Source: Cheilinus undulatus
Lineage: Eukaryota
Direction of reading: 5' to 3'
Assembly: GCF_018320785.1 (NCBI RefSeq)
Contig: NC_054879.1
Span: 26,520,546 to 26,584,545, forward strand
DNA length: 64,000 bases
This document shows positions 41,140 through 47,440 of this stretch, in pieces. Both the position numbers and the translations under genes were made by a program. The first letter of the stretch is position 1, and every line of letters starts with the position of its first letter. The notes beneath the pieces were generated by a model. That model was not told where the DNA came from and did no database searches. It saw only the letters and a list, made by a program, of their open reading frames with translations.

Positions 41140-41317
41140 GTTAGTCCTTTTAAAGTATTTTATACAATGTGCTGCTGTTGTGAATGCAAATGCAATGAAA
41201 TAATTGGTGTAAAAAATCCTAATCTAGAAGAAAAAAATCTTTAGCAGTGTCAAAAATATGCAGACATTTGGTTGTAGACTAGAAACTCATTTTGTTTTAA
41301 ACCTTGGCATATGAATA

Positions 41318-42946
41318 CAGTCATGGACGAAAATATTGGCACCCCTGGAATTTTTCCAGAAAATACATCATTTCTCCCAGAAATTGTTGCAATCAACAAA
41401 TGTTTTTGGTATACACATGTTTATTGCCTTTATGTGCATTGGAACAACACAAAAAATCCGAAGAAAAAATAAAAAATTGACATCATTTTACACAAAACTC
41501 AAAAAATGGGCCGGACAAAATTATTAGCACCCTCAACTTAATATTTGGTTGCACAACCTAGGAAAAAATAACTGAAACCAATCAATTCCTTTAACCATTG
41601 ACAAGATTCTTACACCTCTCAACTGGAATTTTGGACCACTCTTCTTTTGCAAACTGCTCCAGGTCTCTCAGATTTGAAGGGTGCTTCTTCAACAGCAGTT
41701 TTGAGATCTCTCCATACGTGTCCAATGGGATTTAGATCCGGACTCATTGCTGGCCACTTCAGAACTCTCCAGCTTTGTCTCCAACCATTTCTTGGTGCTT
41801 TTTGAGGTATGTTTGGGGTCATTGTCCTGCTGGAACACCCATGACCTCTGACCCAGACCCAGCTTTCTGACACTAGGCCCTACATTGTGGCCAAAAATCT
41901 TTTGATAGTCTCAGATTTCATGATTCCTTGCACACAGTCAAGGCACCCAGTGCCAGAGGCAGCAAAATAACCCCAAAACATCCTTGAACCTCCACCATGT
42001 TTGACTGTAGGTACTGTGTTCTTTTCTTTGTAGGCCTCATTCTGTTTTCTGTAAACAGTAGAATGACGTGCTTTTCCAAAAAGCTCTACCTTAGTCTCAT
42101 CTGTCCACAAAATGTTCTCCCAGAAGGACTGAGGCTTACTCAGGGACATTTCAGCAAACTCCAGTCAGGCTTTTTTATGTCTCTTTGTCAGCAGTGGGGT
42201 TCTCCTCGGTCTCCTGCCATAGCGCTTCATCTCATTCAGATGACCACGTATGGTCCCAGCTGACACTTTTGCACCCTGAGTCTGCAGGACAGCCTGAATT
42301 TGTGTGAAAGTTGACTGAGGATGTTTATCCAACGTTCCAACTATCCTGCGTTGCATTCTTTTGTCAGTTTTTCTCTTCCGTCCACGTCCAGGGAGATTAG
42401 CCACAGTTCCATGGGTTATAAACTTCTTGATTATATTACACACAGTGGACAAAGGAATTTCAGGATCTCTGGAGATGGTCTTTAACCTTGAGATTGTTCA
42501 TATTTTTCCACAATTTTTCTTCTCAAGTCCTCAGACAATTCTTGGCTCCTCTTTCGCTTCTCCATGCTTGGTGTGACACACACAGGCAGACAACACAAAG
42601 GTTGAGTCAACTTTTAGACATTCTAACTGGCTTGAGGTGGGATTTCTAGATTGCCAGCACCTGTTACTGCCACAGGTGAGTTTAAATGAGCATCACATGC
42701 TTGAAATAAAATGATTTACCCACAGTTTTCAAAGGGTGCCAATAGTTTTGTCTGGCCCATTTTTTGAGTTTTGTGTAAAATTATGTCAATTTTGTCTTTT
42801 TTCTTCGGATTTTTGTGTTGTTCCAATGCACATAAAGGGAATAAACATGTGTATACCAAAAACATTAGTAATTGCAACAATTTCTGGGAGAAATGATGTA
42901 TTTTCTGGAAAAATTCCAGGGGTGCCAATATTTTCGTCCATGACTG
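41318..42946 (-). mobile_element. Tc1-like element, family C, with ~210-bp terminal inverted repeats and near-intact transposase; TA target duplication
   Basis: Left end TA|CAGTCATGGACGAAAATATTGGCACCCCTGG..., right end ...CCAGGGGTGCCAATATTTTCGTCCATGACTG|TA. The inverted arms, 41318-41530 and 42716-42946, are almost identical. Minus ORFs at 42165-42452, 41880-42149 and 41619-41873 give a Tc1 transposase broken by only about two frameshifts. Confidence 0.9.
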
Positions 42947-43150
42947 TATGAAAAATACATCCTAATTTCGGTCAGCCAAATGAAAGTGTTTGCTATATAA
43001 ATAATGCCATGCATTAAAACATTTTGCAGCGTAATCATACAAGCAGGACAATGCACTTTTTTTCCTTTGGCAAATTCATGTTACTCTATCAAATTATTGA
43101 TGACTCTCTTCCTACTAAGGTTGTTCAAATGTTTGACACTTGCTTTAAAG

Positions 43151-45597
43151 CTACAACTCCACAAAAGCTTGGGCGCTTTGTAACATGTAATTAAGAACAA
43201 AATGCAATGATTTGCAAATCTCGTAAAACCTACTTTTATTCAAAATAGAACTAAAACAACATATCTGATCTTGAAACTAAGACATTATATCATTTCATGA
43301 AAAATTTAAGCTCATTTGAATTTGATGGCAGCAACACATCTCAGACTGAAAAGTATGGACAGGGCCATGTTAACCGTTGTGTAGCATCCACTCTTAACAA
43401 CTGTCTGTAAATGTCTGGGAAATGAGGAGACCTGTTTTGGGAGAGGAATGTTGTCCCATTCTTGTCTGATGTAGGATTCAAGATGCTCGACAGTTCTGGG
43501 TCTTCTTTGAATGTTTTTTATTTTTTGATCTACCAAATGTTTCTGTTGGTGAAAGGTCTGGACTACAGGAAGGCCAGTTCAGCACTCAGGCTCTTCTACT
43601 TTGAAGCCATGCTGTTGTGATGGATGTGGTATGTGGTTTGGCATTACCTTACCATTTGGCATTGCGAAAATATGCAAGGCATCCCTTAAAGAAACGTTTT
43701 CTGGATTGGGACATATATATGTTGCTCTAAAACCTCTATACTTTCCGCCATTGATAGAACCTCTCCAGATCTGTAAGGTGCCCATAGGCACTAATGCAGC
43801 CCCATACCATCAGAGATGCAGGCTTTTGAAGTGTGCGCTGGATGATCCCTCTCCTCTTTAGTCTGCACAACAGGGTTTCACAGGTTTCCAAAAAGAATTT
43901 TTAATTTGATTAATCTGACCACAGAACAGTTTTTCATTTTATCTCAGTTCATTTTAAATGAGCTTTGGCCCAGAGAAGATTGTGGATCGTGTTTACATAT
44001 GGCTTCTTCTTTGCATGATTAAATTTAACTTGTATTTGTAGATGGGACTGCAAACTGTGCTGACAGACAGAGATTTCTGGAAGTGTTCCTGAGCCCATGC
44101 ACTGATTTCCAGTACAGAATCGCGCCTGTTTTGAATTGCAGTGCTGCCTGTGGGCCCTAAGATCATGAGCATGCCAACCAAACTTCATTCTTTTCCCTTT
44201 CACACAGAGATTTCTCCAGATTCTTTGAATATTTTGATGGTATTATGGACTGTAGATACTGGGATGTTCAAAGTGTGTAATTTTATGTTAAGAAACAATT
44301 TTCTAGAGTTTTTCAACAACTTTTAGACGCAGTTGTTTTTTTGTAAATTGGTAACCCTCTGCCTATCTTTACTTCTGAGAGACTCTGCCTCTCTAAGATG
44401 CTCCTTTTTTACCCTGTCATGTTACTGACCTGTTGCCAATTGACCTTTTTAGGTGTAAAATGCTTCTCCAGCAGTTTTTATTAGTACAATGTAATTTTCA
44501 GCCTTTTGCTGTCCCTACATTTTTTTAGATGAGTTGCTGCCATCAAATTCAAAGTGAGCTAAATTTTTTCATGAAATGGTCAAATGTCACAGTTTCAATA
44601 TATTATATGTTGTTTATGATTTATTGTGAATGAAATATTAGTTTATGAAATCTGCAAATCAATGCATTTGGTTTTTATATACAGTGCTTAACAAATGTAT
44701 TAGACTACCCTAACCCTAACCATGTAAGGTTTATGCCACAGCTGCCCTAAATTAAAAGCATTGGTAATTACTAAAATCATTTTTTATTACTCTGCAATGG
44801 TTAATACACCAATATGTAGAAGCTCTTTAACCCAAATGATATTTTTAATGCTAAAATAAAATATAACTAGAATGGCCGTCTGAGGCGGCAGACCCACGCC
44901 TAAGCAGCGCCACCGAGGAACTCAGCTCCCATTGGTTACTATGATGTTCAAAATTCGAAGTGCGAGAAAAACCAAACGGATGCGCCGATCATCACCAAAA
45001 TTGAATCAGTTCTTCCCTGTCACTATCCCAATATTCCCTGAAAGTTTGGTGAAGATCTGACTTTCCATTCTCGAGTTATCTTGTACACATACAAACAAAC
45101 AAAGAAACGAACAAGCAAAGATACGGAACCCTTTACATAACCCCCTGCCGATTTCATCGGCATGGGTAATAAAATATCACCTAAAATATAATTATTATTG
45201 TTATCCGTGAATTTTCAAATTTACTGATTTACAAAAAAACTGAAAAAATAGTAAAGCACATTAATATTTCTTGATTAATATGTCAAATTATAGTTATTTA
45301 CTTGCATTCCTGAACAGAAAAATGAGTTTTAGTGGTTGAATGTTATGCTTGATTCATTTCTGACTTCTCAGAGAAGCCCAGTGAGCCGGCTCAAATTTGG
45401 GTGAATTCACTTTGAAATTCCTCATTCCTGTTCAAAATGGTAAAACGTGGAGAGCTCACTGAAAATGAAAGAGTCCGCATGAAAGCACTACATGATGCTG
45501 GATGGTCTCTGAGTCAAATATGACAGATGGTCTAATAAATTTGTTAAGCACTGTACATTTTACACAGCACCCAATCATTTTTTAAATTGGGGTTTTT
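43151..45597 (-). mobile_element. Tc1-like family A copy (minus) carrying a nested insertion
   Basis: Left terminus ctacaactccacaaaagcttgggcgctttgtaacatg. Transposase pieces on the minus strand are 43312-43536 (C-terminus ..SYIRQEWDNIP..) and 43949-44203 (N-terminus ..WAKAHLK..). The right terminal repeat resumes at 45555-45597 after an 872-bp insertion. Confidence 0.75.
44682..45553. mobile_element. Nested Tc1/mariner-type non-autonomous element inside the family A terminal repeat
   Basis: 24-bp inverted termini are CAGTGCTTAACAAATGTATTAGAC and GTCTAATAAATTTGTTAAGCACTG, flanked by TA/TA. There is no transposase ORF. It contains ccctaaccctaacc near 44708. Confidence 0.7.
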
Positions 45598-47050: not shown

Positions 47051-47390
47051 CACTGTGTGTAAATTGGAAGATAACCCTTTGTTTAAACTTGATTTAACAA
47101 GCTTTGAGCATTACGAACTTAAGGCACATTATTGCAAATAATAATAATAATGGTGCATAGGCCACAACCAACTTCTTGGATGAAAAGTGGTTTGAAAAAT
47201 GCAACTGTTCTCCAGATTTTATGGTTACTTTTACCTTACTGAGTTCTTCAATTACTCTTCATTTTTGTGGGACCTCCTTGGAACCAGGTAACAACCAGGT
47301 TAACATGAATTTATAGATGGAATGATAGCATTTATTTGAAAACAGATTTAGTGTCTACAGTGAGCTTATTGTGACTTCGTTTTCTTTTTT

Positions 47391-47428
47391 GTGTGTGTAT
47401 GTGTGTGTGGGTGTGTGTGTGTGTGTGT
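47391..47428. repeat. (GT)n microsatellite abutting the 3' splice site of the large PARP4 exon
   Basis: gtgtgtgtatgtgtgtgtgggtgtgtgtgtgtgtgtgt ends 12 bp before the acceptor AG at 47439-40. Confidence 0.9.
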
Positions 47429-47440
47429 CCTCTGTTGTAG

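Follow-up and report, generated by a model that had tools for sequence, protein, structure and literature searches.

In the genomes of ray-finned fishes, Tc1-type transposons attain high copy numbers (PMC9777934). Their closest described representatives for the present locus are the fish DD34E elements of the Sleeping Beauty and ZB (SB/ZB) type, which measure ~1.6 kb, duplicate a TA target, carry inverted repeats of 180–300 bp, each with two binding-site repeats, one outer and one inner, and encode a ~340-aa transposase that combines paired-type helix-turn-helix domains with a DDE triad of 34-residue spacing (PMC9777934). The elements described below match this transposase and share the size, the TA duplication and the two-repeat arms, here of ~215 bp. 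Unlike Sleeping Beauty, they are dead, with mutated catalytic residues, and the termini of the copies studied here are different (CAGTCATGGACG..., CAACCCCAATTCC... and CAGATGAGGAC...). Two other known systems are relevant: the non-autonomous and miniature elements derived from Tc1/mariner, which have short terminal repeats starting with CAGTG, a TA duplication and no functional transposase, and the UnaL2 LINE 3' element (RF00436), a tail of L2-clade LINEs and SINEs.

The locus lies in a 64-kb stretch of the Cheilinus undulatus genome (the window). A single intron of PARP4 contains three decayed Tc1 elements, E1, E2 and E3, with one further insertion nested in E2 and one in E3 (Table 1). Transposable element (TE) sequence makes up 5335 bp of this intron, or 85%. 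Its description in the initial annotation as a transposon nest of three Tc1 families is upheld. The intron is very probably a place where mobile DNA has accumulated passively, having received three Tc1 elements that decayed and then later insertions. Nests of Tc1-type elements in fish introns are routine, and standard repeat annotation would find this one; it is an already known kind of feature, an ordinary build-up of junk DNA for a teleost genome, and its importance beyond annotation is small. It offers clean element boundaries that can be used for masking the region and a textbook case of nested insertion, in which a terminal repeat has taken up a DNA transposon and a transposase gene has taken up a retroposon tail.

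Host gene and intron boundaries

Three lines of evidence identify the + strand host gene as PARP4. Its exons encode the Pfam domains BRCT_2, PARP_reg/PARP, VIT and VWA_3 in that order; a homolog search with the gene returned more than 500 homologs named PARP4, the top ones included; and the C-terminal exons match a transcript-derived protein (P0001) with a precomputed PF26156 PARP4_MVP-ID annotation, although a local Pfam search of these exons did not reproduce the PF26156 match. The gene has the domain order BRCT, PARP catalytic, VIT, VWA and C-terminal MVP-interacting domain.

The intron would be spliced as drawn in Table 1, judging from its boundary signals and reading phase. Its upstream exon is predicted from an open frame, splice signals and acidic composition only, and the large downstream exon shares 65% identity with P0001. 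The large exon has one close relative only, the 2.6-kb transcript contig L001, which begins within that exon and does not cover the 41139/47441 junction. For an orthologous comparison, the PARP4 locus of Anabas testudineus (L002) was used, in which the gene spans 14 kb versus more than 45 kb here, a difference explained by the TE load. The mappable exons of the Anabas locus reach window position 40939 at most, and it yielded no empty site because the acidic and proline-rich exons flanking the intron are too diverged to map. Between and beyond the elements, the remaining gaps (three of 172–203 bp, and 47034–47440) are not repeated elsewhere in the window, with the exception of the (TG)n tract. 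A match to SCARNA7 at 47279–47472, which spans this microsatellite and the exon boundary, was rejected as a chance hit (23 bits versus a gathering score of 65).

Table 1. Features of the PARP4 intron and its surroundings, in window coordinates.
Feature	Position	Strand	Boundaries and support
Upstream PARP4 exon (acidic region), predicted	41029–41139	+	AG acceptor 41027–28, GT donor 41140–41; ends in phase 0
PARP4 intron, 6301 bp	41140–47440	+	GT..AG ends; phase 0 on both sides
E1 ('family C'), full-length dead Tc1, 1629 bp	41318–42946	-	TA duplications 41316–17 and 42947–48; SB100X (5cr4) match, E=7e-43
E1 left inverted-repeat arm	41318–41533	.	Outer direct-repeat motif GGACGAAAATATTGGCACCCC (41325), inner GGACAAAATTATTAGCACCCT (41513)
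E1 right inverted-repeat arm	42733–42946	.	Arm alignment
E2 ('family A'), heavily decayed Tc1	43154–45596	-	TA 43152–53 and 45597–98; SB100X match, E=5e-11
Nested non-autonomous Tc1/mariner-type element, 872 bp, in E2 right arm	44682–45553	+	TA 44680–81 and 45554–55
E3 ('family B'), Tc1 truncated at 5' end	45771–47033	-	TA 45769–70; SB100X match, E=5e-38; alignment to L003/L004
60-bp retroposon 3'-tail fragment (L2/UnaL2-type) in E3 coding region	46881–46940	-	Rfam RF00436 UnaL2 3' element
(TG)n microsatellite	47390–47428	.	Just upstream of splice acceptor
Large downstream PARP4 exon (proline-rich region)	47441–48948	+	AG 47439–40, GT 48949–50
Other family-A copies in window (n=3), uninterrupted	~3694–4833, 30741–31887, 58743–61633		

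Three dead Tc1 elements

E1, E2 and E3 are dead members of the Tc1 family (DD34E) within the Tc1/mariner superfamily. All three match the SB100X transposase (PDB 5cr4), and it is on these matches that their homology to Sleeping Beauty rests; the identities of ~40% for E1 and E3 and ~27% for E2 come from a tblastn search with an SB10 query and serve as a lead only. TA duplications flank E1 and E2 at both ends and E3 at one end only, the other being truncated. Terminal inverted repeats within the 17–300 bp range are present in E1 and E2, and E3 alone lacks the pair, through its truncation. The 34-residue spacing from the second D to the E is retained: E2 and E3 align ungapped to SB100X in this region, and the corresponding stretch of E1 measures 103 nt versus the 105 expected, corresponding to a 2-nt deletion. 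A catalytic residue is mutated in each element (E to G in E1, D to G in E2 and D to N in E3), and none keeps an intact open frame of ~340 aa, the transposase remnants being broken by in-frame stops and several frameshifts in E1, many stops as well as frameshifts in E2, and stops and frameshifts in E3. Pfam detects HTH_Tnp_Tc3_2 in E1 (59 bits) and gives the N-terminus of E3 an HTH_SB score of 32.7 bits, short of the 43-bit cut-off. The catalytic fragments of E2 and E3 are not recognized by Pfam, so it is the PDB and protein-database matches that assign these two.

The boundaries of E1 are exactly those of the initial annotation, and its inverted repeats, put there at ~210 bp, measure 216 bp and are 95% identical (208 identities, 9 mismatches and 2 gaps). 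The ends of E1 read TA followed by CAGTCATGG on the left and CCATGACTG followed by TA on the right, of the form TA-CAGT...ACTG-TA. E2 consists of 1569 bp of its own sequence and an 874-bp nested insert. Its earlier identification as a Tc1 with a split right repeat stands, and its ends, formerly 43151–45597, are refined to those in Table 1; the right-end TA is placed on the assumption of a 1-nt indel in that decayed terminus.

The structure of E3 was resolved with two intact relatives from public fish read assemblies, L003 (Logan SRR20012999) and L004 (ENA ERZ6052510). Both are 1641 bp long, with a 340-aa open frame carrying HTH_SB, HTH_Tnp_Tc3_2 and DDE_3 and with both arms in place. They share with E3 the terminus TA followed by CAGTTGARGACAAAATTATTAGCCCCCC, which is matched by the left end of E3, and an inner repeat that follows immediately on the stop codon. 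Over 1165 bp of DNA, they are 67–69% identical to E3, and at the protein level the identity is 61%. In contrast with these relatives, E3 has lost the first 382 bp, contains a 60-bp retroposon insert, and is interrupted by stops and frameshifts: it covers their positions 383–1641, running from window position 47033 down to 45771. The left arm (45771 to ~45985) matches the arms of the intact relatives. No right arm of E3 could be detected, the alignment score of 16 lying in the range given by shuffled sequences (mean 13.9, sd 2.0), and the right arm of E1 aligned against the right-end region of E3 did not score above shuffled controls. The comparison with the intact relatives, which starts at their position 383, shows that the right arm is missing along with the first ~382 bp. 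The earlier placement of a Tc1 at about 45860–47050 was correct as to its nature, but its left boundary fell ~90 bp short and its right boundary reached ~17 bp too far. The arms of the intact L003 are themselves only ~79% alike, and repeat-arm identity was for this reason rejected as an age clock.

Several comparisons support the view that E1, E2 and E3 are separate elements, each from a different family. At the DNA level, E1 and E3 share only 58% identity across 632 bp of their coding sequence, and E2 has no similarity to either at E<=1e-5; E2 is merely 27–30% identical to the Tc1 proteins retrieved as relatives of E3, and the closest protein relatives differ among the three. The opposite reading, on which the three are one rearranged or duplicated element, or their termini chance inverted repeats, had been named in the initial annotation as what would undo its claim. 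It could draw on the short colinear matches between E1 and E3 and on a repeat motif that they have in common (GGACAAAATTATnAGCACCCT). The divergence of E1 from E3, the lack of any cross-match to E2, the distinct protein relatives, the presence of termini and TA flanks proper to each element, and the score of the E1 arms (379 over 219 columns) make it practically impossible, and we regard it as refuted.

Insertions within E2 and E3

The right terminal repeat of E2 is split by an 872-bp element whose boundaries agree to the base with the initial annotation. It has TA on both sides and terminal repeats matching at 27 of 29 bases; the repeat sequence, CAGTGCTTAACAAATKTATTAGAC, occurs in the window only at the two sites of this element, with 0 expected by chance. 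Excising 44682–45553 together with one TA lengthens the alignment of the E2 arms outward by ~40 bp, and the reconstituted arms, of ~200 bp, align with 171 identities, 43 mismatches and 8 gaps. The restored sequence, in which ...AAAATGTA joins TATAAAAAC..., runs colinearly with both the left arm and the uninterrupted family-A ends at ~4833, 31887 and 61633; the split is confirmed because all three uninterrupted family-A copies match the restored sequence.

With terminal repeats and a TA duplication but no functional transposase, the nested element has the makeup of a non-autonomous Tc1/mariner derivative. It differs from miniature elements in being long for the class, in carrying a 28-codon N-terminal transposase remnant (MVKRGELTENERVRMKALHDAGWSLSQI, at 45437–45523) and in containing a module (44860–45180) weakly related to another repeat, at window positions 90–390. 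The element also gives a weak HTH_38 match (E=0.011, below the cut-off). Given its 872 bp and the remnant, the label of internally deleted non-autonomous element suits it better than that of a classic miniature transposon. One copy is present within the 64-kb window.

The nesting order is clear: the 872-bp element entered family-A sequence, at this locus or elsewhere. The initial annotation had read the nesting as a relative age, and the order that it gives need not refer to events in this intron. E2 and its insert could have formed a composite elsewhere and moved into the intron as one unit, in which case the nesting order would be uninformative about what happened here. In favor of such a transfer, the E2 right arm is intact beyond the insert over its outermost ~40 bp, the usual place of transposase binding, and TA is found at both ends of E2. 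Against it, the insert is absent from all three of the further family-A copies that the window contains, and E2 is far more decayed than the termini of the insert. We consider a transfer of the composite unlikely, and insertion of the 872-bp element in situ to be more parsimonious.

E3 carries an insertion of another kind, a 60-bp fragment in its coding region that appears as a gap relative to L003; the initial annotation did not include it. The fragment matches the full-length 54-nt model of the UnaL2 LINE 3' element (positions 1–54) with the stem preserved (46.4 bits, E=2e-8). Unlike the UnaL2 element proper, it consists of a 60-bp tail only, and its score lies below the gathering threshold of 55; for this reason, it is treated as a relative of L2-type tails and not counted as a curated member of RF00436. 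No clear target duplication was seen around 46881–46940.

Accumulation in the intron and potential function

The history that we propose for in situ accumulation begins with three unrelated DD34E Tc1 elements, each of which would have entered a TA by cut-and-paste, duplicating it. E1, E2 and E3 would then have decayed to pseudogenes in place, probably as neutral insertions that persisted because splicing takes out whatever lies in an intron. At a later time, a Tc1/mariner-type element with an internal deletion, mobilized in trans, would have inserted into a TA ~40 bp inside the right terminal repeat of E2. A severely truncated L2-type retroposon tail entered the coding region of E3, which also lost its first ~382 bp.

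Part of the nest might instead have been co-opted, with E1 double-stranded RNA affecting editing or splicing, or a TE fragment serving as an alternative exon or promoter. The E1 arms have a predicted folding energy of -333 kcal/mol versus -85 +/- 7 for shuffled sequence, and E3-derived sequence ends ~400 bp from the splice acceptor. Any long inverted repeat would fold so, however, and co-option is not supported by conservation, transcript or RNA-family evidence, the Rfam gathering score being reached by nothing in the window; we hold it to be extremely unlikely. No evidence was found for a function of the nest. As for E1 itself, its long, closely matched repeat could in principle form a double-stranded stem in PARP4 pre-mRNA, subject to editing, small-RNA processing or altered splicing, and, separately, its family may have been recently active in this lineage; we rate these suggestions, whose support goes no further than the fold energy, as very unlikely. 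Passive accumulation is the reading that we retain.

The transposase remnants of E1, E2 and E3 all lie on the minus strand, antisense to PARP4, as the initial annotation had it. An antisense bias was rejected, three of three giving a two-sided p of 0.25; across the whole gene, four Tc1 remnants are antisense and three are sense.

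PARP4 and its repeat-filled intron

Judged from sequence, the host gene is PARP4, since its domains lie in order, its homologs bear that name and it matches an annotated PARP4 protein. Exon-like open frames on the plus strand carry Pfam matches to BRCT_2 (E=4e-9), PARP (E=6e-31) with PARP_reg, VIT (2e-39) and VWA_3 (2e-15), in this order; the PARP_reg match is weak (E=9e-5), its 23.0 bits falling below the cut-off of 26.8. Exon queries returned more than 500 proteins, headed by teleost ‘protein mono-ADP-ribosyltransferase PARP4’ at 70–75% identity; as database PARP4 proteins reach no higher than this, none comes from a close relative of the source species. 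The large exon is 65% identical to P0001, a transcript-derived protein annotated as PF26156 PARP4_MVP-ID, which exons farther downstream also match.

Transposable elements fill 5335 of the 6301 bp of the intron (85%), and the transposon nest proposed here in the initial annotation was confirmed and its interpretation supported, with small coordinate corrections and one extra nested fragment. If the predicted upstream exon were not real, the nest would still lie inside a PARP4 intron, then starting at 40940. At more than 45 kb (window 9100-54327), PARP4 is longer here than in Anabas testudineus (~14 kb; locus L002, LR132057.1:4920623-4935675), a difference that appears to reflect intronic repeat load. 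Such nests are commonplace in teleost genomes, and standard repeat annotation would detect this one.

Coordinates of features in and around the nest
Feature	Window position	Strand	Remarks
Predicted upstream exon	41029-41139	+	predicted solely from an open reading frame, flanking splice signals and acidic make-up
PARP4 intron	41140-47440	+	GT start, AG end; both junctions phase 0
Large exon	47441-48948	+	
E1 (family C)	41318-42946	transposase −	
E2 (family A)	43154-45596	transposase −	TA on either side
Nested element	44682-45553		872 bp, non-autonomous
Telomere-like run (ACCCTA)2.5	44707-44721		just inside the nested element's left terminal repeat
Nested-element module	44860-45180		ends ...GGGTAATAAA
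Repeat resembling the module	90-390		ends ...GGAGGTAATAAAG
E3 (family B)	47033 down to 45771	transposase −	
Putative L2-type tail	46881-46940	−	
(TG)19.5 microsatellite	47390-47428		12 bp upstream of the large exon's splice acceptor

Three decayed Tc1 elements

E1: The initial coordinates of this element proved exact. Its ends, CAGTCATGGACG...CGTCCATGACTG, are each flanked by TA, and its arms align over 216 bp (208 identities, 9 mismatches, 2 gaps). Each arm holds GGAC(G/A)AAAnTATTnGCACCC as an outer and an inner copy, which is the inverted-repeat/direct-repeat arrangement of Sleeping Beauty-type elements. The minus-strand transposase remnant matches the Sleeping Beauty transposase SB100X (5cr4; E=7e-43) and Pfam HTH_Tnp_Tc3_2 (59 bits). 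It is disabled by in-frame stops and several frameshifts, with the catalytic E mutated to G and a D-to-E distance of 103 nt versus 105 expected. In the pre-mRNA, the arms are predicted to fold at -333 kcal/mol versus -85 for shuffles; nothing suggests that this predicted fold is put to use.

E2: On the minus strand, a remnant with many stops matches SB100X (E=5e-11) and retains the 34-residue spacing. At least three further family-A copies occur elsewhere in the window, and aligning several of their termini together with those of E2 gave a consensus terminus, TA followed by CAACCCCAATTCC, which shifted the initially stated ends of E2 slightly, to 43154-45596.

E3: The SB100X match of the minus-strand remnant (E=5e-38) shows the 34-residue spacing free of gaps; the remnant's second catalytic D is mutated to N. 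A protein search returned intact relatives of 340 aa that are 61% identical. Two of the contigs encoding them, from public fish read assemblies (L003, Logan SRR20012999; L004, ENA ERZ6052510), carry complete elements (1641 and 1642 bp) with termini TA followed by CAGTTGARGACAAAATTATTAGCCCCCC and arms of ~215 bp. Aligned to these, E3 begins at element position 383 and continues to the terminus, having lost the first 382 bp with the whole right arm, in agreement with an arm search that did not find a right arm. The same alignment places the left end (TA followed by CAGATGAGGACAAAATTATAAGCACCCT) at 45771, so that the Tc1 element was borne out but extends ~90 bp farther left than first estimated.

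The reading of these as three distinct families held. E1 and E3 share 58% identity over 632 bp of coding DNA, and E2 has no DNA match to either within the window. Among Tc1 proteins retrieved as E3 relatives, the best match of E1 is P0182 (56%), that of E3 is P0122 (57%), and that of E2 reaches only 27–30%. By these comparisons, the three are distinct families inside the DD34E Tc1 group (group features: PMC9777934). An antisense bias was rejected: three of three in the intron gives p = 0.25, and gene-wide Tc1 remnants number four antisense and three sense.

Nested insertions and their order

The right arm of E2 is split by the 872-bp element, as initially described. Sequence left of 44681 aligns with the E2 left arm, and removing the insert plus one TA lengthens the arm alignment outward by ~40 bp, leaving colinear arms with 171 identities, 43 mismatches and 8 gaps. 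In the multiple alignment, arms of other family-A copies (...AAAATGTAAATAAAAAC...) cross the insertion point without a break. The insert has TA on both sides and terminal bases matching at 27 of 29 positions; its terminal sequence is found nowhere else in the window (chance expectation 0). A 28-codon fragment adjoining its right end has a weak HTH_38 match (E=0.011, below cut-off). Its module bears a distant resemblance to the repeat near the window start (~68% over 115 bp; score 130 versus 51 +/- 8 for shuffles), and the two look like an interspersed repeat family.

Within its transposase remnant, E3 carries 60 bases extra to L003, a feature absent from the initial annotation. They match all 54 nt of the Rfam model for the UnaL2 LINE 3' element (RF00436) and keep its stem, at 46.4 bits versus a gathering score of 55 (E=2e-8); in the whole window, no Rfam family scored at or above gathering. 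This stretch is best read as a severely truncated L2-type LINE or SINE tail and a second nesting event.

What the nesting establishes is that family-A sequence received the 872-bp element and family-B sequence the L2 tail. The initial order of events stands to that extent, but is not strict proof that either insertion happened at the PARP4 intron itself. Arm identity was rejected as a clock, as the intact L003 element's own arms are only ~79% alike.

Other repeats in the window

More decayed Tc1-like remnants lie on both strands (3622-4833, 9646-10053, 23534-23929, 30741-31887, 39598-40009, 58743-61633), three of them family A (~3694-4833, 30741-31887, 58743-61633); the last is apparently interrupted by ~1.6 kb of other sequence from 59157 to 60771. 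Long plus-strand open frames in a PARP4 intron (15890-17134; e.g. ...KKPRIRYKLLQSIKEKGGLNLPNIKKYYWASQLRALKVW...) resemble the C-terminal portion of a reverse-transcriptase protein of LINE type. At 23875-24400 inside PARP4 and 56630-57450 downstream, the translations contain stretches that resemble each other (...SKSTQTTLSPATPSNSF...; ...SKSTKTSLSPATLSKSF...), which suggests another interspersed repeat family.
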